Shown here piece by piece: positions 35,511 through 54,726 of a stretch of DNA of 64,000 nucleotides. The notes below the pieces were generated by a model. The model did no database searches, had not been told where the DNA came from, and was given only the letters and a program-made list of their open reading frames with translations. How positions within the stretch are numbered: the first letter of the stretch is position 1; each line of letters begins with the position of its first letter. The stretch comes from Deltaproteobacteria bacterium (lineage in GTDB: Bacteria; Desulfobacterota; Binatia; UBA1149; CAITLU01), in NCBI GenBank assembly GCA_016218925.1, contig JACRCR010000140.1:6389-70388 (forward strand), in the 5' to 3' direction. Position numbers and translations under genes: made by a program.

Positions 35511-36854
35511 TCAATAAAGCCCCGGAATGATCTTTGCCGGCACGCGCCGGCAGTACTCGTCCCAGTCGGCGCCGTACTTGTTGCGACAGCGTTTGTCGTC
35601 GCGCGTGGCGCGATCGGCGAGCAGCAGGATCAGGAAGGTCAGGTAGAAGTACGGCACGAAGTGTTCGAAGCCGGCCGGAATGCTCCAGGCCAGCGCGAGC
35701 GCGATCTCCGGCACGTAGTGGAAGTGGCGCGCCAGTCCCCACCAGCCCGAGGCCAGCAGAAGGCTCTCGTGCTCGCTTGCGTCGGCGGTGGTGTAGCGCG
35801 CGTGGATCAGGTCCGGAGCGCGCCCCCAGACCGTCGTGTTGCCGCCGGTCTCGCGCACGCGCTGGCGCTGCTCATCGGCGGCATAGTTCACGTAGATCGC
35901 GGCCAGGCCGACCACGAAGATGGCTGCCGCAAGCGCCGCCGGCATGTCGTAGGGGCGCAGCACGAGGTACTGCGCGGTCAGTGCGTACACCGCTGGCACC
36001 CAGGCGAGCACGCCCCAGCAGATGTAGTAGCCGAAGCGGTCGTGCATGATGTCGAGTGAGGTGAAGTACCCGCTCTCCCACCAGAAGAACTTCAGCAGAT
36101 ACACGACGGTGATCGCCACCGACACCAGCATCGAATTGCTCACGTGCCCGAACAGCTCGCCCTGCTTGGCCGCGAACGAGCACACGATGATGCTCCATCC
36201 CATCATGCTGATGCGGCAGTTGATGAGCTGCTTGAGGTTGATGCCGAAAAGCTCGGGGTGCAGCTCGACGCCCCAGTAGTAGTCCCAGATGAAATTGCCC
36301 GAGACGCTACGATCTTCGCAGGTCGGCCACACCCGCCCCTTCACGTAGAGAAGCAGACACAGCACCAGCGCGAACACGACGAGGGTGATCAGCATCGGCC
36401 CGAACCGGTCCCACACGACTCCCGCACTGAAGAGCCCCAGACCGTAGGAACAACCGAAGAACAGACCATGGGTGACGAGCCAGGCGGCGATGCCGTTGAG
36501 CTTGTAGCGCGGGCGATTGCCGGACGGCGTGATCGGGCCGAAAAAGTCCTTTCCGGGAAGCCACTGCAACAAGGCGGTCTCGAGCACGACAAAGACCAGG
36601 ATCATCTCTGCGGCGGCCAGGCTCGGCGACGGGAAGTGCGCGGCGACCGAGCGCCAGCCCTTCGCCGTGAGCAGCGGCAACAGCGAGCCGTCAAAGGGCT
36701 CGAAGGTGCAGACGATCCAGAACAGGATCGCGGCGGGCGGGGTCGACAGGATCAGCAACAGCGGGCCGAGGCGCGAGCGGATCAGATCGACCCACGCACC
36801 GTCGCTGCCGGCCGCCCAGGTCGTGAGCTTCTGCGCTGGCGACTCATTCGACAT
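35511..36854 (-). CDS. Sterol Delta7-reductase (7-dehydrocholesterol reductase, ERG4/ERG24 family)
   Basis: 'YKLNG', 'DYYWGVELHP', 'YFTSLDIMHDRFGYYICWG', signature 'LLASGWWGLARHFHY', 'RDDKRCRNKYG..W..YC..VP..IIPGLY'. Confidence 0.93.
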   Translation of the reverse strand: MSNESPAQKLTTWAAGSDGAWVDLIRSRLGPLLLILSTPPAAILFWIVCTFEPFDGSLLPLLTAKGWRSVAAHFPSPSLAAAEMILVFVVLETALLQWLPGKDFFGPITPSGNRPRYKLNGIAAWLVTHGLFFGCSYGLGLFSAGVVWDRFGPMLITLVVFALVLCLLLYVKGRVWPTCEDRSVSGNFIWDYYWGVELHPELFGINLKQLINCRISMMGWSIIVCSFAAKQGELFGHVSNSMLVSVAITVVYLLKFFWWESGYFTSLDIMHDRFGYYICWGVLAWVPAVYALTAQYLVLRPYDMPAALAAAIFVVGLAAIYVNYAADEQRQRVRETGGNTTVWGRAPDLIHARYTTADASEHESLLLASGWWGLARHFHYVPEIALALAWSIPAGFEHFVPYFYLTFLILLLADRATRDDKRCRNKYGADWDEYCRRVPAKIIPGLY

Positions 36855-36932: not shown

Positions 36933-36946
36933 ATGATTTTTGTCAT
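36933..36946. promoter_or_regulatory. Crp/Fnr-type palindrome ATGAT-TTTT-GTCAT (site 1)
   Basis: In the divergent promoter between the sterol reductase and the oxidase operon; the 21-mer 36928-36948 matches 42659-42679 at 17/21 positions. Confidence 0.7.
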
Positions 36947-37036
36947 GGCCGGGTGCGCGCATCTGGTGTCTTGATGCCCACTGGGCGACCCCGGTCACCG
37001 CTTCGGTGTCCGGAAGGGCTGGTCCGGGAGGTATCG

Positions 37037-37198
37037 ATGGCCACGACGCACGACCCACAGCGGCAGATTCCGCTCGGACAGAGGCTCTACGACCGGCCTT
37101 TTCTGCTGCTCGGCTTCGGCCTCGTGGTGATGTTCGCGTTCTACACGATCTGGGGACTGCTCGAACTGATGTGGCTGCCGGTGGCCACGCTGCCGTAA
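37037..37198 (+). CDS. Small single-TM protein, probable accessory subunit (IIa-like) of the heme-copper enzyme
   Basis: 53 aa, RBS GGAGG, one hydrophobic helix, first gene before subunit II. Confidence 0.7.
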   Translation: MATTHDPQRQIPLGQRLYDRPFLLLGFGLVVMFAFYTIWGLLELMWLPVATLP

Positions 37199-37210: not shown

Positions 37211-37798
37211 ATGGAAGAACTGCACAGTGCACTGGTGGCGCCCCGCGGCATCTGGTGGAAGGCGGCCGGCCGCCAGGAGAGGATCTGGGTCACCGTCTCG
37301 TTCGTGTGGTGCATGATCCTGTTCGCGATGATGCCGCTATGGCACATCAAGGGCGGCCAGAATCCGTCCGGGATCCGAGCCAGGGTCGAGCCCGAGGCGT
37401 TTCGGCGCCGCGTCGATCAGTTCATCGCCGACTACAAGATCGGGTCGGAAGCGGGGGTTCCGTTGGTCGCGCCGCCACCCGGTTCCGACGTCTATCTGCT
37501 CGCGCGCATGTGGCAGTGGTATCCGGCGCTGGTGCTGGAAGAGGGCAAGACCTACGTGCTGCATCTCTCCTCCATCGACGTCAATCACGGGTTCAACCTG
37601 CAACCCTTCAACGTGAACTTCCAGGTGGTGCCCGGCTATGACTACGGGCTGCGCATCACGCCCAACCAGGCCGGGGACTATCGCGTGATCTGCAACGAGT
37701 ACTGCGGGATCGGGCATCACCTGATGACTGGCAAGATCCTCGTGAAGCCGGCCGGTAGCGCGGCCGTCGCGCCGGTCGCCCAAGGGGGTACGCGATGA
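37211..37798 (+). CDS. Heme-copper oxidase subunit II with CuA site (B-family/eNOR type)
   Basis: One TM, cupredoxin domain 'SSIDVNHGF' and 'CNEYCGIGHHLM'. Confidence 0.93.
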   Translation: MEELHSALVAPRGIWWKAAGRQERIWVTVSFVWCMILFAMMPLWHIKGGQNPSGIRARVEPEAFRRRVDQFIADYKIGSEAGVPLVAPPPGSDVYLLARMWQWYPALVLEEGKTYVLHLSSIDVNHGFNLQPFNVNFQVVPGYDYGLRITPNQAGDYRVICNEYCGIGHHLMTGKILVKPAGSAAVAPVAQGGTR

Positions 37799-39522
37799 GC
37801 GCCGCCGCAGCCGTCGCCGCCGTGTTTCGCCGCTGCCCGGTTACCGGTCTGAAGATCGATCGGCACGCCGAGAACCTGATCAAGGTCAACGCCGTAATCT
37901 CGATCGTCACGCTGCTGGTCGGAGTGATCGCGGCGATCGGTCTGGTGCTCACCCGCTGGCAGGCCGTGCACCTGCTGCCGGTGGACTGGTTCTACCGGCT
38001 GCTGACCGCGCACGGCCTGAACATGCTGATCTTCTTCATTCTCTACTTCGAGATGGCGGTGCTGTACTTCGCCGGACCGGTCATGCTCGGGTGCCGCGTT
38101 CCGACGCCGAGGCTGGCCTGGGGCTCGTTCGCGCTGATGCTGGCCGGAACGCTGATCGTCGAAGTGATGGTGTTCTCGGGCAAGGCCGACGTGCTGTTCA
38201 CGTCGTACCCGCCGCTCAAGGCCGATCCTTGGTACTATCTCGGCATCATCCTGTTCGCGGTCGGCGCGCTGATCGTCACCGCGATCTTCATGGCCACGCT
38301 GGTGGTGGCCAAGCGCGAGCACACCTACGAAGGTTCGGTTCCGCTGGTCACCTTCGGTGCGCTGACCGCGGCGATCATCGCGATCATCACGCTGCTGCAC
38401 GGCGCGGCGATCTACATCCCGGCGCTGGCGTGGTCACTGGGGATCATCACGCTCGATCCCGAAGTCTACCGGCTGCTGTTCTGGGGTCTCGGCCATTCGT
38501 CGCAGCAGATCAACGTCGCCGCGCAGGTTTCGATCTGGTACCTCCTTGGCGGTCTCACCGTCGGCGCGGTGGTGGTCAACGAGAAGATCAGCCGCACCGC
38601 CTTCGTGCTCTACGTCGGGTTCATTTCGATGGCATCGGCACACCACCTGCTGGTCGATCCTGGCATGGGGCCGGCGTGGAAAGTGTGGAACACCAGCTAC
38701 GCGATGTATCTGGCGGTACTGGCCAGCATGGTGCACGGTTTTACCGTGCCGGCCGGGATCGAGACCGGGCTGAGACTGCGCGGCTTCGTCAACGGAACCT
38801 TCGAATGGCTGCGCAAGGCACCGTGGAGCGATCCTGGATTCGCCGGCCTGATGCTGTCGCTGGTGATCTTCGGATTCATCGGCGGCATCACCGGCGTGAC
38901 GATGGGGACCGAACAGATCAACATCCTGGCCCACAATACGCTGCGCGTCCCCGGTCACTTCCACGCGACCGTCGTCGGTGGCACCGCGCTGTCGTTCATG
39001 GCGGTGACCTACTACCTGATCCCGCTCATCTTCCGCAAGAAAGTCGCGCTGTGGAAGCTGGCCAGGATCCAGCCGTATCTGTTCGGGATCGGCATCACGA
39101 TCTTCTCGATCTCGATGACGTTCGCCGGGATCTTCGGAGTGCCGCGACGCCACTGGGACATTTCGTTCGCGCAGGCGCCGTTCAAGTACGAGTTTCCGCC
39201 GGCAGTCGACCTGATGCTGGCGCTGACCGCGATCGGCGGATTGATGGCTGCCGCGGCGGTGCTGATCTTCATCGCCAGCGCGGTGATCTCGGTGTTCTTC
39301 GGCGAGAGCCTGGATCTTGCCGCACTGACGCCCGGGATGGCGGGCGTGCCGCAGGGACTGACCAAGCTGCCGCCCCAGCAGTACGAGTCGGAGACGGTCG
39401 CCAAGGTTCACGGCGCCGGAACGCCGGGCACGGTGGTGCTGGTGGCGGTCTTCCTGCTGGTCTTCGTGATGTACTACTACACCAACTGGAAGATGCTTTC
39501 GGTGGTGTGGAAGATCGGTTGA
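37795..39522 (+). CDS. Heme-copper oxidase subunit I, probable eNOR-type nitric oxide reductase
   Basis: Six His ligands (TAHG, GHSSQQ, AHH, GHFH); the His+4 cross-link Tyr of O2 reductases is Gln (HSSQQ at 38494-38508). Confidence 0.85.
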   Translation: MSAAAAVAAVFRRCPVTGLKIDRHAENLIKVNAVISIVTLLVGVIAAIGLVLTRWQAVHLLPVDWFYRLLTAHGLNMLIFFILYFEMAVLYFAGPVMLGCRVPTPRLAWGSFALMLAGTLIVEVMVFSGKADVLFTSYPPLKADPWYYLGIILFAVGALIVTAIFMATLVVAKREHTYEGSVPLVTFGALTAAIIAIITLLHGAAIYIPALAWSLGIITLDPEVYRLLFWGLGHSSQQINVAAQVSIWYLLGGLTVGAVVVNEKISRTAFVLYVGFISMASAHHLLVDPGMGPAWKVWNTSYAMYLAVLASMVHGFTVPAGIETGLRLRGFVNGTFEWLRKAPWSDPGFAGLMLSLVIFGFIGGITGVTMGTEQINILAHNTLRVPGHFHATVVGGTALSFMAVTYYLIPLIFRKKVALWKLARIQPYLFGIGITIFSISMTFAGIFGVPRRHWDISFAQAPFKYEFPPAVDLMLALTAIGGLMAAAAVLIFIASAVISVFFGESLDLAALTPGMAGVPQGLTKLPPQQYESETVAKVHGAGTPGTVVLVAVFLLVFVMYYYTNWKMLSVVWKIG

Positions 39523-39523
39523 G

Positions 39524-40459
39524 ATGTCCACGATGATCGCCGAGATGCCGCTGCGCGGTGACCGCGTGCCGGAAGCAGCCGCTACCGCGGTCGCGATGAT
39601 GACCTGCTGGACGCTGGTGACGGCGGCATGGTGGGCGCTTGCGCTGGCGCAGGTGTCCGACCCGCCTCCGTGGCTGGCGGTGGCCAGATCGGTGTGTTTC
39701 GGCTCGACGCCGAGCGGGCTGCCCGATACCTACGGATGGGTGGTGCTGGTGTGCGGCCCTGCGTCGATGCTCGGCGGGATTCTGGCGGTCTGGGGCCACG
39801 AACTCGTTGCACGGGTGCGGGCTGCGTGGACAGAGCCGCTCGGTCGCGTGCTGCTGGCGGCGGCGGCGGCGGCGGCGCTGTCTGGAATCGGCTGGGCGGC
39901 GGTTCGCATCCATAGCGGATTGCAGATCGTTGCGGCCGACTACGCGCCGCTCGAGGAGGGGCCGCTTCCAGCGACTCATCCGCGGCTCGACAAGGCGGTG
40001 CCGGCCTTCGACCTCGTCGACCAGAACGGGCGCGCATTCACCGATGCGGATCTGCGCGGGCGAGTCACGCTGCTGACCTTCGCGTTCGCCCACTGCCGCA
40101 CCGTCTGCCCGGTCATTCTCGAAGGTCTGCGGCGTGCTGCGGCGGCGGCACACGACCCGCGCATGCAGGCGGTGGTGATCACCCTGGATCCGTGGCGCGA
40201 CACCCCGAGCCGGCTGGCGCAGATGAAGAACGAGTGGGCGCTGCCGGTGGAGACCCACCTGCTCTCCGGCGAGGTCGGCGCGGTGACGCGCGCGCTCGAC
40301 GCCTTCGGGGTTGCCTGGAAGCGCAACGATAACGACGGCGACGTCGTCCACGCGCCGCTGGTCTACGTGGTCGGAGGCGACGGGCTGATCGCGTACGGGT
40401 TCAACAACCCGGCGCCCAACTGGCTGGTCGACGCGACGATGCGGACGGCGGCTCGGTGA
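39524..40459 (+). CDS. SCO family copper chaperone with N-terminal membrane domain
   Basis: CxxxC 'HCRTVCP', 'ITLDPWRDTP', conserved His 'VVHAPLVY'; three N-terminal TMs. Confidence 0.88.
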   Translation: MSTMIAEMPLRGDRVPEAAATAVAMMTCWTLVTAAWWALALAQVSDPPPWLAVARSVCFGSTPSGLPDTYGWVVLVCGPASMLGGILAVWGHELVARVRAAWTEPLGRVLLAAAAAAALSGIGWAAVRIHSGLQIVAADYAPLEEGPLPATHPRLDKAVPAFDLVDQNGRAFTDADLRGRVTLLTFAFAHCRTVCPVILEGLRRAAAAAHDPRMQAVVITLDPWRDTPSRLAQMKNEWALPVETHLLSGEVGAVTRALDAFGVAWKRNDNDGDVVHAPLVYVVGGDGLIAYGFNNPAPNWLVDATMRTAAR

Positions 40460-40472
40460 GCCGCTACAGCGC

Positions 40473-40985
40473 CTACTTCACGACAAAATCGGTGTCATCG
40501 CCTTCGAGAGAAACGATGCGGATGCGGCCCTCGTCGAAGGCGATCCGTCCGTCGAACGCGTAGGTGGGCAGCGGTTTGTCGCTGGCCGCGACCGAGGTCT
40601 CCGGGGCGAATCGCACCGCGACATCGTGATCGCCAGGCGTGACCGCGATCGTGGAACTGTGCGTGATCGGCCGATCGCCGTGAATTCCGGCCGGGCGGCA
40701 ACGCTCGTCGGCCACCTCCACCTCGTCAATTTTCACCTGTAGTCGGTAAGCGACCGGTGTCATCTCGCACGCCGTCGGGCGGCGCATGTGCTGGGGCAGG
40801 CCGGCCAGTTCGTCTTCAGACAGCGTGCGGCAGACCTGCGCGCGACCTGCCGAAGTGCGCAGCGCCAGTTGCAGCAACGAGCCCCGCGTAGGGTCGGAGC
40901 CCTCCATGTGCAGCACCGTGAGCGTTGCAGCCCCGAGCAGCAGTCCGCCCAGCACGCGTCCCGCGCCGACCGCGATCTCAGCCAC
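40473..40985 (-). CDS. Hypothetical membrane-anchored protein coupled to the cytochrome b fusion
   Basis: N-terminal TM; 'VCRTLSEDEL..LPQHMRRPTAC' then a beta-rich domain; GTG overlaps the upstream stop by 8 nt. Confidence 0.65.
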   Translation of the reverse strand: MAEIAVGAGRVLGGLLLGAATLTVLHMEGSDPTRGSLLQLALRTSAGRAQVCRTLSEDELAGLPQHMRRPTACEMTPVAYRLQVKIDEVEVADERCRPAGIHGDRPITHSSTIAVTPGDHDVAVRFAPETSVAASDKPLPTYAFDGRIAFDEGRIRIVSLEGDDTDFVVK

Positions 40986-42594
40986 GACTTGCCACCTGCT
41001 TCGGTTCGCACTGCGTGCCCACCTGCAAGTCGCCGGCTGGCAGGCCCGGCCCGAGCGCGGCCAGGCGTGCGCGGAAACTCTCGATCTCGGCCTCGAGGCT
41101 GCGCCACTCGCCGCGCGAAGCGGCGTGGATCGCCACGCGCCTCTTGTCGACGCGCGCCGGCAACTCCGCCTCGCGGTCGTTGTAGACGCGCTCGTACAGC
41201 CACTTGGGGCCTTCGCGGCACGGCGCGCTGCGCGGCGGGCACGCAGCTATGAAGACGCCGCCGCTACCGGCGCGCAGCAGCATTTCGATCACGGAAGTAT
41301 GAAGGTTCCCTGCGCACTCTACCGTCATGACGCTGGCACCGGGCAGCGAGGTCAGCCGGGGATCGTCGTGCAGCGGGTTGTGGCGGCAGGCCAGCAGCGT
41401 GAACCCGTCGGCGCGAACGCCGTGCTTCTCGATCAGGTCCTGCGTGCGACGCAGTTGGATGCGTCCGGTGTGCGCTGGTGGTCCTATTCCCATCGGCGCG
41501 CACGAGCCCGCGCAGATGCCGCACGCTACACAGCGCGCCGGGTTCACCCACGAGTAGAACTGCGAGCGGCGACCCGGATCGGGTCGCTCGAGCATCGAGA
41601 TCGCGTCGAAGGGGCAGTCCTTGTAGCAAGTCGTGCAGCCGGTGCACACTTCCGGGTCGGACCACGAGGGCTGCGCCCGTGCGCGTTTGTTCTTCCACCA
41701 CCAAGGCACCGAACACATCAGCGCGGCCGCAGACAGCCACGACGCCAGGTGCACCGCAGGGGAGACCTGCCAGGCCAGCGGCAGCCAGAAGTTGTAGAGC
41801 AGGTCGATCGGAACGTTGCGCGGGATCACCAGCAAGTCGGCGCGCTGGCCGAGCGGGACGCGCAGCACCAGCGCGAGCACCGACAGCACGCCGACCACGC
41901 CGATCGCGAGCGCGCGCGGCGGCGCCAGATGCGGCCGCGCGAGGTTGGCAAGGTGCAGCCACAGCGCCGCGGCCAGTCCCAGCGGCAGACACACGTGCAA
42001 GAACAGGTTCATGAAGAAGAACGACGCCGGCACCGGAGCCAGCCCGGCGAAGGCCCTTCCGATCGGCACCGAGAACAACGGCAGCAGGTCGACGATTTTG
42101 GTGAGTTCGACCGCCACCACCTGGCCCTGCAGGTCCCACGCCATCACCTGACCGGTCCAGCCGCACGCCAGCGTCGCTCCGACCAGCACAGCCCCGCTGA
42201 TCCACGCGCGCGTTCGCGGGCCATGGAAGCGTCCGGCCAGGAACATCTTGAGCGCGTGCAGCAGCGCGGCCGCCATCGCCAGGTCCGCGGCGTAGGTGTG
42301 CAGGGCGCGCACCCAGCTTCCCAGCGGGATATCGGTGTCGATGCGGGCCACCGACTGGTAGGGGTGCTCGATGCTGTAGAACAGGAACAGGAAGATGCCG
42401 GTGGTGATCAGGACCAGGAACGCGACGATCGCCAGCGTGCCGCTCTGGTGCAGCGGGTTGAAGTTCGAGGAGTAGAAACGATCGAAGAGTTCGTCGAGCC
42501 TGGTCACCGCGCTGTCGATCACCGCGACCGTGCGCGACCACGTCGCCGGCCTGGAGTTGGGCAAGTCTGCCGGTTGTGTGGCTGGGCCGCTCAA
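40978..42594 (-). CDS. Cytochrome b(N) + 2x[4Fe-4S] ferredoxin + MvhD/FlpD-like fusion protein
   Basis: Cyt b helices with 'RALHTY...LLHALKMF' and 'MNLFLHV'; CTGCTTCYKDCP and CVACGICAGSC; MvhD-like 'VECAG...GVFIAACP...CREG'. TTG start at 42594 with GGAGG RBS. Confidence 0.85.
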   Translation of the reverse strand: MSGPATQPADLPNSRPATWSRTVAVIDSAVTRLDELFDRFYSSNFNPLHQSGTLAIVAFLVLITTGIFLFLFYSIEHPYQSVARIDTDIPLGSWVRALHTYAADLAMAAALLHALKMFLAGRFHGPRTRAWISGAVLVGATLACGWTGQVMAWDLQGQVVAVELTKIVDLLPLFSVPIGRAFAGLAPVPASFFFMNLFLHVCLPLGLAAALWLHLANLARPHLAPPRALAIGVVGVLSVLALVLRVPLGQRADLLVIPRNVPIDLLYNFWLPLAWQVSPAVHLASWLSAAALMCSVPWWWKNKRARAQPSWSDPEVCTGCTTCYKDCPFDAISMLERPDPGRRSQFYSWVNPARCVACGICAGSCAPMGIGPPAHTGRIQLRRTQDLIEKHGVRADGFTLLACRHNPLHDDPRLTSLPGASVMTVECAGNLHTSVIEMLLRAGSGGVFIAACPPRSAPCREGPKWLYERVYNDREAELPARVDKRRVAIHAASRGEWRSLEAEIESFRARLAALGPGLPAGDLQVGTQCEPKQVASRG

Positions 42595-42663: not shown

Positions 42664-42677
42664 ATGACGGATGTCAT
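42664..42677. promoter_or_regulatory. Crp/Fnr-type perfect palindrome ATGAC-GGAT-GTCAT (site 2)
   Basis: In the divergent promoter between the cytochrome b fusion and DUF2249; same flanks (GTCGT...GG) as site 1. Confidence 0.72.
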
Positions 42678-42735
42678 GGGCCCGGCGCGGCTCATTTCGT
42701 AGGTTCGATAATCGTTGCGACCGAGCGGATCCGAC

Positions 42736-43023
42736 ATGATCTACCAACCCGACGACGAGCGAGTGCGCTTCTGGCAGGACTCGACCGACCCGATGCGATC
42801 TCATCTCGACGTTCGCGAACTGCTCGAGGACGGCGGCGAACCCTACGCGATCATCATGGAGTGCGTGAACAGGCTGCAAGGCGGCGAGTGCGTGGTGCTG
42901 CATGCGATCATGCAGCCGCGCCCGTTGCTGGCCCAACTGGGTAGGATGGGTTTCGCCTGCGACGTGCGCCACGTTGGCGCCGATCACTGGGAAGTCGACA
43001 TCAGCGCAAGGGCGCAGGCCTGA
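42736..43023 (+). CDS. DUF2249 domain protein
   Basis: 'LDVRELLEDGGEPYAIIMECVNRLQGGECVVLHAIMQPRPLLAQLGRMGF...HWEV' fits the DUF2249/TusA-like pattern. Confidence 0.75.
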   Translation: MIYQPDDERVRFWQDSTDPMRSHLDVRELLEDGGEPYAIIMECVNRLQGGECVVLHAIMQPRPLLAQLGRMGFACDVRHVGADHWEVDISARAQA

Positions 43024-44574: not shown

Positions 44575-45267
44575 TCACGAGCCTCCTGCAAGCTGGGCCA
44601 TGGCGCGCCGATCGCGCACGCAAAGGCCGCGATCGTCCTGGCCGATCAGCCCGTCCTTCTGCCAGCGGCTCATGATGCGGATGACGGTCTCGATGCGTGC
44701 GCCGACCATGTCGGCGAGATCCTGACGGGTCAGCGGGATCGGCAGGTAGACCGGGCCGGGCTGGTCCGGCGACTTGGCACACAGGGCCTGCAGAACCCTG
44801 GCGATGCGGTACTCGACTCCGCCTCCGCCAAGATCCTCCATGCGTCGCTGCATCACGCGCATGCGCAGCGTCAGATCGCGGATCAGCGCGATGGCGGTTC
44901 CCTCGAAGCGCTCGAGGTAGGTGAAGTAGGCTTGGCGCGGCATCACCCATACGGTCGCGTCCTCGTGGGCGGAGGCCGAGGCCGGATAGCCGGTGCCGTC
45001 GATGACCGCGACCTCTCCGATGGCATCGCCGAAACGGAAGATGCCGAGAATCAACTCGCGCCCGCTCTCGAGCGAGCGAAAGACTTTCACCGCGCCGCTT
45101 TCGACCAGCCACAGATGCGAAGAATCCTCGCCCTCCAGGAACAGCATCGCGCCCTTGGCGTAGGAGCGCCGCGATAGCTGCTCGGCCAGCCAGGTGAGTG
45201 CCTGCTGCGACACGCCGCTGAAGCGCGGTATTCGGCTGATGGTGCCGATGGAGTCGGGGTCGATCAC
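44575..45267 (-). CDS. Crp/Fnr family regulator (no FNR Cys cluster; DNR/HcpR-like)
   Basis: cNMP-binding fold 'LFLEGE...GAVKV...GDAIGE', HTH 'LTRQDLADMVGARIETVIRIMSRW'. Confidence 0.92.
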   Translation of the reverse strand: MIDPDSIGTISRIPRFSGVSQQALTWLAEQLSRRSYAKGAMLFLEGEDSSHLWLVESGAVKVFRSLESGRELILGIFRFGDAIGEVAVIDGTGYPASASAHEDATVWVMPRQAYFTYLERFEGTAIALIRDLTLRMRVMQRRMEDLGGGGVEYRIARVLQALCAKSPDQPGPVYLPIPLTRQDLADMVGARIETVIRIMSRWQKDGLIGQDDRGLCVRDRRAMAQLAGGS

Positions 45268-50651: not shown

Positions 50652-52517
50652 ATGCAAACCCGTAATCTGGCTGTTGCCGTCACTTCTCTCGATGATTCCG
50701 ACGCTGCCTTCGAAGAAGACCAGTGCAGCGCCGGCGCCTTCGAGGCGGTCGCGACGCCGCTGCGCGACGCCCTGCGCGACCGCGGCTTTAGCGCACTGAC
50801 GGCGGTGCAGCAGGCGGTGCTGGAGGCGACGATCGACGGCCGCGACCTGCAGATCTCATCGCAGACCGGCTCCGGAAAGACCGTTGCGCTCGGCTTCGTG
50901 ATGGCGCCGCAGCTTCTCGAACTCGATGCACGCGCGCCGAAGGCTCGGCCGCTGCCGGCGGGTCCGGTGGCCCTGGTGATCGTTCCGACCCGCGAGTTGG
51001 CCGCTCAGGTCAAGACCGAACTCGAGTGGCTCTACGCAGGCGTTCCGGCGGTCGTGGTCGAGTGCGTCACCGGTGGCACCAGCGTCGGCCAGGAGCGCCG
51101 CCGCCTGGGCGCAAGGCCTCCGGTCGTCGTCGGTACTCCAGGGCGCCTGCTCGACCACATCCGCAGCGGCGCGCTGGATTGCTCGCTGGTCAGCCAACTG
51201 GTTCTCGACGAAGCCGACCGCATGCTCGACATGGGCTTTCGCGAAGAGCTTGCGGCGATCCTCGAAGCCACGCCCGCCGAGCGTCGCACGCATCTGGTTT
51301 CCGCCACCTTCCCGCCCGAGATCCGCGCGCTGGCGCGCCAGTACCAGGTCGAGCCGTTGCAGGTTCAGGGAACCCGCCTCGGAGTGGCCAACGTCGACAT
51401 CGAACACGTCGGCCATCTGCTGCGCCAGGACGACCGCTACGCTGCGCTGGTCAACATCCTGCTGCTGGCCGAAGGCGAGCGCACGCTGGTGTTCGTCAAC
51501 ACCCGCGTCGAAGCCACCCAACTCGCCGACCAGTTGTCTGGCGACGGCTTCACGGCACTGCCGCTCAGCGGCGAGCTCGAACAGGCCCAGCGCACCCGCA
51601 CGCTCGCGGCGTTTCGCAACGGCGCGGCCAGCGTGCTGGTAGCTACCGACGTAGCCGCGCGCGGCCTGGACATTCCCGAAGTCGGCACGGTCATTCACAC
51701 GGCGCCGCCGATCGACTCGGAAACCTACACGCATCGAAGTGGACGTACCGGGCGCGCCGGACTCAAGGGCCGCAGCGTGTTGCTCGCGCCCGCGCACCGC
51801 CAGCGCAAGGTCGAGTTCCTGCTCGCGCGCGCCAAGGTCAAGATCCAGTGGCGCGAGGTGCCCACGGCTGCGTCGGTGGCCAAGGCTCTGGCCAAGCGCG
51901 AACGGCGGCGTCTGGAGAAGGCTCTGGACGGAGCCCCCGAGCTCACCGAGACTCAGCTCGAGTACGCGCGCGCGCTGCTGGAGAAGCGCGACGCTGCGCA
52001 GCTCGTTGCCAACCTGATCGAGCAGTGCCGCGCGCCGCACAAGGCCGCGCCGCGCGAAGTGAAAGCCGCGAGCGCCGAACTCGCCAGTCGCCCCGAGGCG
52101 CGTTCCGAGCCCCGCCACGGGCAGGACGCGCAGCGCCCGCGCGTGCGCCAGCTGCGCGAAGACGACCGCTATCAGCGTCGCGACGACGGTTATCGCCGGC
52201 CCGAGCGCGAAGACGACTCTCGTCGCGGCGGTGCGGTGCATTTCGAGATCAACTGGGGGTATCGCGATGGTGCCAGTCCGCAGCGGCTGCTCGCCGTCAT
52301 CTGCCGTCGCGGCGACATCTCCAGTCGCATGATCGGCGCCATCGACGTCGACACCCACGTTGCCACGTTTGAGGTTGCCGGCGAGGCTGCGCGCGAGTTC
52401 GACGCCCGCGTTCGCCGCCCCGACTCGCGCGATCCGGATCTTTGCATCCGCCGCGTGCGCGCGTACGAAGGTCCGGCTGGCCCGCGGCGGATCTACACCA
52501 GATCCAGTACGCGCTGA
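50652..52517 (+). CDS. DEAD-box RNA helicase with DbpA-type C-terminal domain (DeaD/CsdA-like)
   Basis: QTGSGKT, PTRELA, GTPGRLLDH, LDEADRM, SAT, ARGLD, HRSGRTGRAG; C-terminal RNA-binding domain. Confidence 0.93.
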   Translation: MQTRNLAVAVTSLDDSDAAFEEDQCSAGAFEAVATPLRDALRDRGFSALTAVQQAVLEATIDGRDLQISSQTGSGKTVALGFVMAPQLLELDARAPKARPLPAGPVALVIVPTRELAAQVKTELEWLYAGVPAVVVECVTGGTSVGQERRRLGARPPVVVGTPGRLLDHIRSGALDCSLVSQLVLDEADRMLDMGFREELAAILEATPAERRTHLVSATFPPEIRALARQYQVEPLQVQGTRLGVANVDIEHVGHLLRQDDRYAALVNILLLAEGERTLVFVNTRVEATQLADQLSGDGFTALPLSGELEQAQRTRTLAAFRNGAASVLVATDVAARGLDIPEVGTVIHTAPPIDSETYTHRSGRTGRAGLKGRSVLLAPAHRQRKVEFLLARAKVKIQWREVPTAASVAKALAKRERRRLEKALDGAPELTETQLEYARALLEKRDAAQLVANLIEQCRAPHKAAPREVKAASAELASRPEARSEPRHGQDAQRPRVRQLREDDRYQRRDDGYRRPEREDDSRRGGAVHFEINWGYRDGASPQRLLAVICRRGDISSRMIGAIDVDTHVATFEVAGEAAREFDARVRRPDSRDPDLCIRRVRAYEGPAGPRRIYTRSSTR

Positions 52518-52557
52518 TGCGCGCGCCTGTCCCCGGCGCCGGCGGGGAGAACTCGCG

Positions 52558-54726
52558 ATGCGTGAAGAGAAGGTCACGTTCTGCCGGGTCTGCGAGGCCC
52601 TGTGTGGGCTCGTTGCGACGGTGGAAGACGGGCGCGTCACCGGGCTCAGGCCCGATCCCGATCACATAGTGTCCAAGGGCTACGCGTGTGCCAAAGGGCT
52701 CGCGTTCCACGATGTGACCCACGATCCCGATCGCGTCGTTCACCCCATGAAGAGGCAGGGCGAGCGCTGGCAGCGCATCGACTGGGATAGCGCGCTCGGC
52801 GAGATCGGCGCCAGGCTGCGCACCGTCCGCGAGCGCGACGGAGTCGATGCGGTGGCTTTCTATACCGGCAACCCGACGGTTTTCTCGTACAGTGCGCGTC
52901 TCTTCGCCGGCGCGCTGGCAAGCGCGGCGGGCACCCGCAACACCTACAGCGCCGGCACCCAGGACAACGCCGCCGACTTCCTGGCCTCGAAGTTCCTGTA
53001 CGGCGCCTACCTGTTGCAGCCGATCCCGGACCTCGACCGCACCGATCATCTGCTGCTGGTCGGCGTCAACCCCGTCGTCTCGCACGGCACGTTGCTCCAC
53101 GCGGCCGACATCGGCCGGCGGATCAAGGCGATTCGCGAGCGCGGTGGCAAGGTGGTGTTGCTGGATCCGCGCCGCACGCAGACCGCGAAGATCGCCAGCG
53201 AGCACCACTATGTTCGGCCCGACTCGGACATCTTCGTGCTGATGGCGATGCTGCGCGTGATCCTCGACGAGCGTTTGGAGGACAAAGCGTTTCTCGACGC
53301 GCACACGCAGGGGCAGGACGACCTGAGGCGTGTGGTCACGGCGTTTTCGCCCGAACTCGCGCAGGCGCGCAGCGGCATCGACGCAGACATCGTGCGCCGC
53401 ATGGCACGCGAGTTCGCCGTCGCGCCGCGAGCCTGCGTCTACGAGCGCGCGGTGTGCGGCACGTTCGGGACGCTGACCGCTTGGGCCTGCGACGTTCTCA
53501 ACATCGTGACCGGCAATCTGGACGCAGCCGGTGGCGCGATCTTCGCCGGCGGTCTGCTCGACATGGTGGCGGTCACCGAGAAGATCGGCATGAACGAATA
53601 CGGCGGGCGCCACAGCCGGGTGGACGCCATGCCCGCTTGTCGCGGCGATCTTCCCAGTGGCGTCCTGGTCGATGAAATCCTGACCCCCGGTGCCGGGCAG
53701 ATCCGCGCGCTGGTCGTCACCGCTGGCAACCCGGTGCTGTCGATCCCGCGCGGCAACGAACTGGCGCTGGCGATGCGCAGCCTCGAGTGCAGCGTAGCGA
53801 TCGATTTCTACATGAACGAAACGGCTGCGTGCGCCGACTACTTCCTGCCCGCCACCACGTTCCTCGAACGCGAGGATCTGCCAGTGGCGCACCAGAATCT
53901 GATGCTCGAGCCGTTCGTGCAGTGGACCGAGCCGGTGATCGCGCCGCTCGGCCAGGCGCGCCAGGAGTGGGAGATCCTTTCCGAGCTCGGAGAGGCGATG
54001 GGGCTGCCGTTCCTGAACAACCCGTTGCTCGACGCCGTGCGCAGGGTCTCGCGTCTCGTCGGCCGTCCACTGTCGGCGACCGGGGTCATCGACCTGATGA
54101 TTCGCACCGGGCGGCTCGGCGACAAGCTGCTGCCATGGCGCAGCGGGCTTTCGCTGGCCGAGATCCGCAAGCATCCCCACGGGATGCGTCTGCCAGGCAA
54201 CACCACCGGCGATCTCGCGGGCAAGATCCGTCATCCCGGCGGCAAGGTGCAGCTGTGGAACGAGCACCTGGAGCGCGACCTCGAGCGTCTGCATGCGACC
54301 ATCGTCGTATCACCAGCGCGAAGCGACGGGGCGCCGCACCGGCGGCCGCTGCAACTGATCGGCCGGCGCGATCCGCGCTCGCACAACTCCTGGATGCACA
54401 ACGTGCCGCGGCTGCTCGCCAGCAACGTCTGCGATCTACGCATTCATCCCGACGACGCCGGCGCTCGCGGGATCGGTGCCGGGCAACGGGTGCGTGTTTC
54501 CAGCAACGTCGGTTCGATCGAAGCGATCGTGGTGCTGAGCGACGAGCTGATGCCCGGCGTCGTGTGCATGCCGCACGGCTGGGGGCACGACGCCGCGGGC
54601 GGCCGGGCGGTTGCGTCCAAGCCGGGCGTCAACTGCAACCTGCTGATCGACCGCCACGCGATGGAGCCGCTGTCGGGGATGAGTTTCCTCAACGGATTCC
54701 CGGTCGAGGTCGAGAAGCTGGGCTGA
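52558..54726 (+). CDS. Molybdopterin (bis-MGD) oxidoreductase, single subunit
   Basis: N-terminal CRVCEALC...C [4Fe-4S] motif, 'ADYFLPATTFLE', C-terminal 'SHNSWMHN...IHPDDA...GVVCMPHGWG'; no Tat signal. Confidence 0.92.
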   Translation: MREEKVTFCRVCEALCGLVATVEDGRVTGLRPDPDHIVSKGYACAKGLAFHDVTHDPDRVVHPMKRQGERWQRIDWDSALGEIGARLRTVRERDGVDAVAFYTGNPTVFSYSARLFAGALASAAGTRNTYSAGTQDNAADFLASKFLYGAYLLQPIPDLDRTDHLLLVGVNPVVSHGTLLHAADIGRRIKAIRERGGKVVLLDPRRTQTAKIASEHHYVRPDSDIFVLMAMLRVILDERLEDKAFLDAHTQGQDDLRRVVTAFSPELAQARSGIDADIVRRMAREFAVAPRACVYERAVCGTFGTLTAWACDVLNIVTGNLDAAGGAIFAGGLLDMVAVTEKIGMNEYGGRHSRVDAMPACRGDLPSGVLVDEILTPGAGQIRALVVTAGNPVLSIPRGNELALAMRSLECSVAIDFYMNETAACADYFLPATTFLEREDLPVAHQNLMLEPFVQWTEPVIAPLGQARQEWEILSELGEAMGLPFLNNPLLDAVRRVSRLVGRPLSATGVIDLMIRTGRLGDKLLPWRSGLSLAEIRKHPHGMRLPGNTTGDLAGKIRHPGGKVQLWNEHLERDLERLHATIVVSPARSDGAPHRRPLQLIGRRDPRSHNSWMHNVPRLLASNVCDLRIHPDDAGARGIGAGQRVRVSSNVGSIEAIVVLSDELMPGVVCMPHGWGHDAAGGRAVASKPGVNCNLLIDRHAMEPLSGMSFLNGFPVEVEKLG

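Follow-up and report, generated by a model that had tools for sequence, protein, structure and literature searches.

Why does a gene that joins a cytochrome b membrane domain to iron-sulfur (Fe-S) motifs and an MvhD/FlpD-like domain lie beside the operon of a putative nitric oxide (NO) reductase? The question is raised by a 64,000-nucleotide stretch of DNA, here called the window, from a Deltaproteobacteria bacterium of the Binatia (NCBI GenBank assembly GCA_016218925.1, contig JACRCR010000140.1, positions 6,389 to 70,388 of the forward strand). The gene in question encodes a 538-residue fusion protein on the minus strand (40978..42594) and is followed by a gene for a 170-residue partner protein (40473..40985, -). 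An earlier interpretation made from the letters of the DNA (the sequence-only reading) had linked this pair to electron supply of the NO reductase. We found that fusion and partner accompany the haem-copper NO reductase eNOR almost without exception in the loci sampled, and suggest that they may transfer electrons to it.

The fusion protein was analyzed by Pfam and NCBIfam domain searches, comparison with its homologues and AlphaFold2 modelling. Its open reading frame starts with TTG, with GGAGG 5 nucleotides upstream, and the same protein was called independently on a public Logan contig. Pfam matched Cytochrome_B at residues 38-218 (E 2.9e-18), both Fer4 and Fer4_7 at 313-366 above their cut-offs, and FlpD (PF02662) at 413-515, with 37.7 bits against a gathering score of 22.3. 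These matches, together with the invariant His and Cys residues described below, agree with the claim of the sequence-only reading that one frame joins a cytochrome b, two Fe-S motifs and an FlpD domain; that the C-terminal domain should score as FlpD was a test set beforehand. NCBIfam gave b6-like matches and matched the C-terminal Fer4+MvhD part of HdrA2 over residues 311-516. The architecture is common to more than 1342 homologues, in which the FlpD domain is also found, and the AlphaFold2 model of the fusion protein had a predicted local distance difference test score (pLDDT) of 90.4 and a predicted template-modelling score (pTM) of 0.89.

The genomic context of the pair was examined at loci having at least 5 kb on both flanks, collected both with the fusion and with the catalytic subunit I of the oxidase as seed. 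The oxidase was present in 23 of 25 fusion-seeded loci. When subunit I of the window was the seed (50-81% identity), the cytochrome b fusion was found in 50/50 loci and the partner in 47/50, and a gammaproteobacterial subunit I, representing the beta/gamma clade, recovered both genes in 52/52. Altogether, the fusion lay beside eNOR in 102/102 well-flanked oxidase-seeded loci from more than a dozen phylum-level lineages; the eNORs sampled were at least 50% identical to the window enzyme or were members of the beta/gamma clade, with the Rhodothermus, Magnetospirillum, archaeal and Chloroflexi loci outside the sample. The results showed that the genomic coupling of the cytochrome b fusion and its partner to eNOR is near-obligate. 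The co-occurrence and synteny with eNOR genes on which the sequence-only reading had staked its claim were essentially complete in both seeding directions, and its link between the cytochrome b module and the NO reductase is strongly supported by this synteny.

The 51 fusion-seeded loci came from Binatia, Thermoanaerobaculia, Gemmatimonadota, Bdellovibrionota, Oligoflexia, Kiritimatiellia, Myxococcota, Latescibacterota and others, and the overall sample also covered Methylomirabilota and Alpha-, Beta- and Gammaproteobacteria. Almost all of the 51 had the layout small protein - subunit II - subunit I - SCO1 - cytochrome b fusion - partner. The orientation of the pair relative to the oxidase operon varied, being co-directional, convergent (the window and its Binatia relatives) or divergent (Gemmatimonadota), and the two units were always adjacent. 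In the window the pair converges on the oxidase operon, as had been read from the sequence: the SCO1 gene ends at 40459 and the gap is 13 nucleotides. Loci with a subunit I more similar to that of the window also tended to have a more similar fusion protein (Spearman 0.80 for the two identities, n=140), the closest loci having 80-81% identity in subunit I. A complete copy of the cluster, comprising eNOR, haem O synthase, SCO, cytochrome b fusion, partner and hemerythrin genes, lies on a plasmid of the cultured Defluviimonas sp. SAOS-178_SWC (locus L215, NZ_CP156080.1, 14059-20598). Among 277 retrieved proteins none had a convincing CxxCH domain.

We then considered the identity of the window oxidase itself. 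Subunit I (37795..39522, +; Pfam COX1) was most similar to subunit I of the Thermus thermophilus ba3 oxidase (E ~1e-43), and in the alignment of the two its GHSSQQ falls on HPIVY of ba3, Gln replacing the cross-linked Tyr. Gln in place of this active-site Tyr is diagnostic of eNOR (PMC8756737, Table A4), and eNOR is expected to have a CuA-containing subunit II (PMC11214002). Subunit II of the window (37211..37798, +; Pfam COX2, NCBIfam CoxB) keeps the CuA ligands, H...CNEYCGIGHHLM. Thus, since Gln replaces the cross-linked Tyr and subunit II carries the CuA motif, the window oxidase is, as judged from its sequence, of the eNOR type. The Rhodothermus marinus eNOR reduces NO and not O2, and NO reductase activity without O2 reduction, as well as haem As, has been shown only for this enzyme (PMC11214002). 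The last gene of the operon encodes a SCO1/SenC copper chaperone (39524..40459, +; Pfam). Before subunit II lies the gene for a small one-helix protein (36953..37198, +), whose true start is likely the ATG at 37038, with GGGAGG upstream. The small single-helix protein is conserved in the non-proteobacterial clusters, and its position corresponds to that of subunit IIa of ba3-type oxidases.

The membrane domain of the fusion protein (residues ~38-300; 41695..42483, -) scored 66.8 bits with Pfam Cytochrome b/b6 (PF00033), the cut-off being 27.2, and a profile search against the PDB matched cytochrome b6 at E 2.6e-26. When the AlphaFold2 model was searched with Foldseek, cytochrome b of bc1 and bcc complexes was retrieved at E ~1e-7 over 280-350 aligned columns, and the membrane part matched b6 with a target template-modelling score of ~0.70. 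Since Foldseek matches both bc1/bcc and b6, the membrane domain is made up of the six helices A-F of a bc-type dihaem cytochrome b. Invariance was judged from an alignment of 60 sequences having 45-67% identity to the window protein. The haem ligands H99/H113 and H200/H214, on helices B and D with a spacing of 14, were invariant in all 60. By homology, both ends of the membrane domain should lie on the cytoplasmic (N) side, with which the basic stretch WKNKRAR after helix F agrees, and the [4Fe-4S] motifs and the MvhD domain are therefore predicted to be cytoplasmic.

By the same analogy, the Fe-S/MvhD unit would be situated on the haem bH side, where bc1 has its Qi site. The canonical Qi residues were not seen in the 60-sequence alignment: the consensus after H214 is VSRVARP, without His or Asp at the bc1 positions, which we took to be the residues that follow the bH ligand of helix D and those opening helix E. 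On the opposite (P) side, the E-F loop carries the family-wide motif ADLLxxPxxVPxDLFYxFWLP, in which D264 is invariant; proteobacterial orthologues have LDWFYL..Y there. The motif resembles the Qo-site sequence PEWYFLFAY by eye only, D264 taking the position of the Glu of PEWY. A profile of the E-F segment searched against the PDB matched neither bc1 cytochrome b nor b6f subunit IV, and a quinol site at the P-side pocket is for this reason only possible. Neither a cytochrome c1/f gene nor helices G-H nor subunit IV was found with the fusion or in the cluster, and there was no Rieske gene in the conserved cluster at the loci examined.

The cytoplasmic part contains two ferredoxin-type motifs of the form CxxCxxCxxxCP (C317/320/323/327 and C355/358/361/365; 41491..41664, -), each predicted from Pfam and the alignment to hold a [4Fe-4S] cluster. 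All eight Cys were invariant, and the profile of the fusion searched against the PDB matched the ferredoxin domain at the C-terminus of HdrA (E 1.7e-14). In the MvhD/FlpD-like domain that follows (41047..41409, -), C403, C427 and C452 were invariant. The Cys of solved MvhD structures (5ODC_D and 8RVU_F) align with C427, C452 and C459, and these residues together with C403 probably form a [2Fe-2S] site. A further Cys, C529 (nt ~41008-41010), was invariant in 60/60 homologues within an otherwise variable C-terminal tail modelled at low confidence; possible roles are that of a fifth cluster ligand and that of a residue contacting the partner. The sequence-only reading had stated that hydrogenase and Hdr genes are absent, and none was found among 20 large open reading frames of the window that were scanned with Pfam. 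Genes for an HdrA-type flavoprotein, hydrogenase or Flx were likewise not found in the related clusters examined.

The partner starts with GTG and overlaps the end of the fusion gene by 8 nucleotides (40978-40985), across its stop codon, so that the two genes are predicted to be translationally coupled. As described earlier, it is a membrane-anchored protein with two Cys: alignment and AlphaFold2 (pLDDT 82.9) gave one N-terminal helix followed by an all-beta sandwich, and both C52 and C73 were invariant. In the model a C52-C73 disulfide is the more likely arrangement, because both residues lie on neighbouring strands. An H66-M67-R68 motif is also conserved, but Thalassospiraceae and Steroidobacteraceae have Asn instead of H66. 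Neither Pfam nor NCBIfam matched the window protein or, at E up to 1, any of 33 homologues; when the model was searched against the PDB with Foldseek, only generic beta-sandwich matches with E >0.01 were obtained. We rejected the partner as a Rieske-like centre, as it has only two Cys and lacks the CxH/CxxH boxes, and as an obligate metal (copper) site, owing to the His to Asn change in the two families mentioned.

Word-indexed searches gave just 8-9 homologues of the partner, and the size of the family became visible through an exhaustive profile search, which found 1384 cluster representatives. The long proteins among the best matches of this family were all fusions of cytochrome b, Fer4, FlpD and partner, or fragments of them, and such natural fusions have arisen independently. 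In them the partner is C-terminal and follows an extra membrane helix, and its beta-sandwich is therefore expected on the periplasmic side. As far as gene structure can tell, the natural fusions and the translational coupling show that fusion protein and partner are physically linked. On all points open to checking, what the sequence-only reading had described of the two genes proved correct.

A second type of cytochrome b fusion was found in beta- and gammaproteobacteria, where the cluster typically has the layout II - I - UbiA-type haem O synthase - SCO1 - cytochrome b/Fer4/FlpD - partner - second COX1-like protein - cytochrome b/Fer2/FAD/NAD(P)H. In the last of these, the FNR-type paralogue, Fer2, FAD_binding_6 and NAD_binding_1 take the place of Fer4-FlpD (for example L116:14481-16397, +). 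It was present in 50/52 beta/gammaproteobacterial eNOR loci, and at least 583 relatives were found, isolates of Piscinibacter caeni, Curvibacter and Simplicispira among them. The window has the Fer4-FlpD type alone; some lineages, namely Steroidobacteraceae and Woeseiaceae, have only the FNR-type fusion with the partner. Therefore the cytoplasmic module is exchangeable, the cytochrome b, the partner and the eNOR context being constant, which speaks for a redox port to soluble carriers at the cytoplasmic end. The Fer2, FAD and NAD domain set is that of the NADH-oxidising NqrF and of phthalate dioxygenase reductase, and since the FNR-type module has this arrangement, electron flow from the cytoplasm to the membrane is favoured. 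The clusters sampled contained a haem O synthase gene and no CtaA. Between the partner and the FNR-type cytochrome b, many beta/gammaproteobacteria and some Bdellovibrionota encode the second COX1-like protein, of 471-478 residues (Pfam COX1 E ~1e-13 to 1e-16; L116:13069-14484, +, and L149:15529-16965, +), with the motifs GGGHALQF and HYHG; the window has no such gene.

How could such a module serve eNOR? We consider it on balance probable that the fusion and its partner form a dedicated, Rieske-less redox accessory of the adjacent eNOR and transfer electrons to it; within this proposal, topology, complex formation with eNOR, donor and flow direction are what we infer. The domains would provide a transmembrane wire of five putative cofactors, namely a possible [2Fe-2S] cluster, two [4Fe-4S] clusters, haem bH and haem bL. 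A cytoplasmic reductant would deliver electrons to the MvhD domain and the Fe-S chain, from where they would pass to haem bH and on to haem bL near the periplasmic side. Haem bL would then reduce eNOR, either at the CuA of subunit II or directly at its low-spin haem. The partner, with its one-helix anchor and cofactor-less beta-sandwich on the periplasmic face, may act as a docking or capping subunit, and the conserved P-side pocket with its invariant Asp might admit quinol as an added or substitute donor. If electrons are indeed transferred to eNOR, a cytoplasmic donor is somewhat more likely than quinol as the supply, and the FNR-type paralogue with its NAD(P)H-binding module would seem to point at least as much to the former as to the latter. 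The interpretation given by the sequence-only reading, a quinol/Fe-S wire that would stand in for a bc1/cytochrome c route, is partly supported.

Several observations weigh against this proposal. The partner has no recognisable cofactor site, a variable H66 and no match to a solved fold, and so offers no carrier for the last step to CuA; a gene for a cytochrome c or cupredoxin was not found in the conserved six-gene core of the loci examined. Flow from the cytoplasm to the periplasm would leave unexplained why a Qo-like loop with an invariant Asp has been kept, and electrons drawn from the cytoplasm would reduce the energy gained with eNOR, which is predicted to be electrogenic. Since the operon also holds assembly genes (SCO1, and haem O synthase in proteobacteria), a role in maturation would account for the synteny just as well. 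The literature searched contained no biochemical or genetic study of any member of the family.

The possibility of a maturation role deserves attention for this reason. The module could be a biogenesis factor, as the sequence-only reading had also proposed, which carries reducing equivalents across the membrane for the maturation of eNOR, for example to Cu(II), to Fe(III) or to Cys pairs in SCO1 and apo-CuA. The pair adjoins SCO1 in most loci, and haem O synthase together with SCO1 in proteobacteria, and the two invariant Cys and the His-Met motif of the partner would be displayed on a periplasmic beta-sandwich. The layout of membrane part, two [4Fe-4S] clusters and beta-sandwich is also like that of the membrane protein CcoG/FixG, a cupric reductase in cbb3 assembly in which two [4Fe-4S] clusters are combined with an Ig-like domain. 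However, Pfam matched neither the FixG-type membrane domain nor the FixG_C Ig-like domain in the two window proteins or in 33 partner homologues, the partner His is not invariant, and SCO1 does not leave the oxidase operon in loci where the cytochrome b-partner pair has moved or is inverted. A five-cofactor protein of 538 residues, with 35-65% identity across phyla, is heavier than known assembly factors, and both types of fusion have been detected in the proteome of denitrifying Ferrigenium (see below). We therefore find this explanation doubtful. A separate explanation, in which the module would be an alternative haem A synthase or another haem-modifying enzyme making the haem As of eNOR in place of the CtaA of other eNOR operons, is highly improbable. 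It would account for clusters that carry haem O synthase and no CtaA, and mitochondrial Cox15 needs a ferredoxin and a ferredoxin reductase, such as the module of the FNR-type paralogue could provide. But the membrane domain is clearly of bc/b6 and not of CtaA/Cox15 type, two Cox15 homologues are encoded elsewhere in the Ferrigenium genome, and catalytic precedent is lacking.

Two further explanations give the P-side pocket a central place. In one, eNOR and the cytochrome b would form a Rieske-less supercomplex in which the electrons of quinol oxidised there are bifurcated: one electron would go to the very high-potential eNOR, which would substitute for a Rieske protein, and the second would travel via bL, bH and the Fe-S/MvhD chain to a low-potential cytoplasmic acceptor, yielding reduced ferredoxin, or to NAD(P)+ via the FNR-type paralogue, so that NO reduction would drive reverse electron flow. 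The bc-type cytochrome b, the conserved E-F loop with D264 at the position of the PEWY Glu (by eye), the missing Rieske gene and canonical Qi residues in the loci and the alignment analyzed, and the Fe-S chain on the bH side are all compatible with such a mechanism. Furthermore, the Fer4+MvhD unit is homologous to the C-terminus of HdrA2, a part of flavin-based bifurcation machinery, and coupling of NO reduction to NAD+ reduction has been proposed in a preprint on Ferrigenium (10.64898/2026.01.22.701106). We nevertheless regard bifurcation as unlikely, as the similarity of the E-F segment to cytochrome b of bc1 or subunit IV of b6f is not statistically detectable, no high-potential centre is placed to accept the first electron, and passing electrons on from the b haems to clusters of ferredoxin type, against the membrane potential, would by our estimate be energetically marginal. 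In addition, most carriers (for example Rubrivivax, Piscinibacter, Simplicispira and Defluviimonas) are heterotrophs with no evident need for reverse electron flow. In the other explanation, the module would be a stand-alone quinone reductase or quinol dehydrogenase, linking a cytoplasmic donor to the quinone pool in the manner of dihaem succinate:menaquinone reductase and co-regulated with eNOR without contacting it, CuA then being fed by an ordinary bc1/cytochrome c or cupredoxin route. A dihaem cytochrome b joined to a cytoplasmic Fe-S or flavin module follows the standard logic of quinone-reactive dehydrogenases, the P-side pocket fits, and NapGH and NosGH are dedicated quinol-reactive modules in other reductase clusters. 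An enzyme serving the general quinone pool would, however, not be expected to be confined to eNOR loci, nor would it need a conserved and repeatedly fused periplasmic subunit, which makes this explanation quite improbable.

The fusion and its partner were further compared with known systems. The membrane domain shares with bc1, b6f and the actinobacterial bcc cytochrome b the A-F fold, the bc1-type bis-His spacing and an Arg three residues before the first ligand, and it has a 'WD' motif in the cd loop, like PWDQ of b6. Unlike in these complexes, PEWY is replaced by VPxDLFYxFWLP, the cytochrome b is continued covalently by an Fe-S chain on the N side, and a new periplasmic subunit is present on the P side. 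The Fer4+MvhD unit of the fusion, with conserved Cys, corresponds to MvhD, FlxD and the C-terminal Fer4-MvhD part of HdrA2 and QmoB, which function as electron connectors in the known systems, but here it is attached to a cytochrome b in the membrane, an arrangement not described before for MvhD. In the Qmo, HdrDE and Hme-type complexes, too, b haems in the membrane are connected to Fe-S clusters in the cytoplasm, which links the quinone pool to a cytoplasmic redox partner. These complexes, however, have a NarI/HdrE-type cytochrome b of unrelated fold and belong to sulfur and methanogenic metabolism, whereas here a bc-type domain is combined with a haem-copper NO reductase. Cytoplasmic input from NAD(P)H or Fe-S centres, two stacked b haems and an acceptor at the outer face are likewise found in the NOX/FRE ferric reductases, MsrQ-Fre and dihaem succinate:menaquinone reductase, to which the FNR-type paralogue corresponds closely, although their membrane folds are unrelated to the bc-type domain.

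The closest precedent is the eNOR operon of Ferrigenium straubiae, which encodes II, I, haem O synthase, sco1, a 'scaffold protein', a cytochrome b+Fe-S protein and a cytochrome b+Fe-S+FAD+NADH-binding protein, and has the layout of the 50/52 beta/gammaproteobacterial loci described above. The 2026 preprint on this organism called the two cytochrome b fusion genes 'rather unusual' and suggested a quinol:NAD+ oxidoreductase or a supercomplex; in culture KS, during denitrifying growth with Fe(II) oxidation, eNOR subunits and both fusions were present in the proteome (10.64898/2026.01.22.701106). Unlike the preprint, in which the fusions were deemed possibly specific to Ferrigenium, we found them in all sampled eNOR loci and in many lineages.

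The region upstream of the fusion gene suggests how the pair is controlled. A palindromic operator, ATGACGGATGTCAT, lies at 42664..42677 between the cytochrome b gene and a divergent DUF2249 gene (42715..43023, +; Pfam) that shares this operator region, and a matching one, ATGATTTTTGTCAT, at 36933..36946 upstream of the eNOR operon. The pattern ATGA-N6-TCAT occurs exactly 2 times in the 64 kb, against 0.31 expected, which bears out the earlier statement that the promoter of the fusion gene carries the second of these sites ('site 2'). Relatives from Binatia, a Schekmanbacteria locus and one additional locus also have the extended palindrome TATGAC-N4-GTCATA at the two positions, and the DUF2249 gene has kept its place in the closest relatives, which are from Binatia, Schekmanbacteria and another lineage. 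The eNOR operon and the cytochrome b unit are thus shown to share a putative operator, hence to be predicted targets of common regulation. A regulator of the CRP/FNR family is encoded at 44575..45267 (-; Pfam, NCBIfam), and since CRP/FNR-type regulators are encoded in all palindrome-bearing loci (L001-L003, L005, L084), it is a candidate for binding both palindromes.

Other regulators were seen elsewhere. In a Longimicrobiales locus (L134:9418-9855, -) an Rrf2-family regulator is encoded between the eNOR operon and a divergent cytochrome b gene; Rrf2 is the family of the NO sensor NsrR, and in the window the CRP/FNR regulator and the palindrome take that place. In alphaproteobacterial clusters a hemerythrin-domain gene lies directly 3' of the partner gene, as observed in Thalassospiraceae (L108:14796-15206, +) and on the Defluviimonas plasmid (L215:11104-11508, +), and in the Thalassospiraceae locus a CRP/FNR regulator gene comes after the hemerythrin gene. 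The presence of Rrf2 and CRP/FNR regulators and of hemerythrin would fit a response to NO or low O2.

Two other genes of the window were recorded. An ERG4/ERG24-family (sterol reductase-like) membrane protein (35511-36854, -; Pfam E 2.3e-77) is the product of a divergent gene that lies immediately upstream of the eNOR operon, and a fragment of a homologue was found in another Binatia locus (L053). About 10 kb from the cluster, a molybdopterin oxidoreductase of 797 residues (52333-54726, +) combines Molybdop_Fe4S4, Molybdopterin and Molydop_binding domains.

The sequence-only reading knew of no characterised function for this architecture, and this holds in the literature searched, where the Ferrigenium preprint makes passing mention of it. 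In that literature, FlpD/MvhD, a bc-type cytochrome b and an NO reductase came together only in two passing mentions, that preprint and PMC8756737, Table A3 of which lists without comment one protein with c-type cytochrome, b6, Fe-S and FlpD parts. A functional study or a report of conservation across phyla was not found there. The domains themselves are all known; what appears to be new is their combination, in which a Rieske-less bc-type cytochrome b, with covalently attached cytoplasmic Fe-S motifs and a novel subunit in the periplasm, is dedicated to a haem-copper NO reductase. The two families defined here have been unannotated: NCBI names the fusion 'hydrogenase iron-sulfur subunit' or 'cytochrome b N-terminal domain-containing protein', and the partner 'hypothetical'. 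Both could be used as genomic markers to separate eNOR from the oxygen reductases, with which it is routinely confused.

The families eNOR, sNOR, gNOR, nNOR and bNOR make up approximately two thirds of the known diversity of NO reductases and about half of their abundance in nature, and among these five, NO reduction has been demonstrated biochemically for eNOR and bNOR alone (PMC11214002). The conserved gene pair is a concrete and testable candidate for the missing electron-input pathway of eNOR, and cultured carriers exist in which the function of the module can be tested, among them Defluviimonas sp. SAOS-178_SWC, Piscinibacter caeni MQ-18, Curvibacter sp. PAE-UM and Simplicispira spp. If the module bifurcates electrons, it would represent a new mode of energy conservation, in which NO respiration directly generates low-potential reductant. 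If instead a cytoplasmic reductant feeds eNOR, the production of nitrous oxide (N2O) would be decoupled from the bc1/cytochrome c chain.

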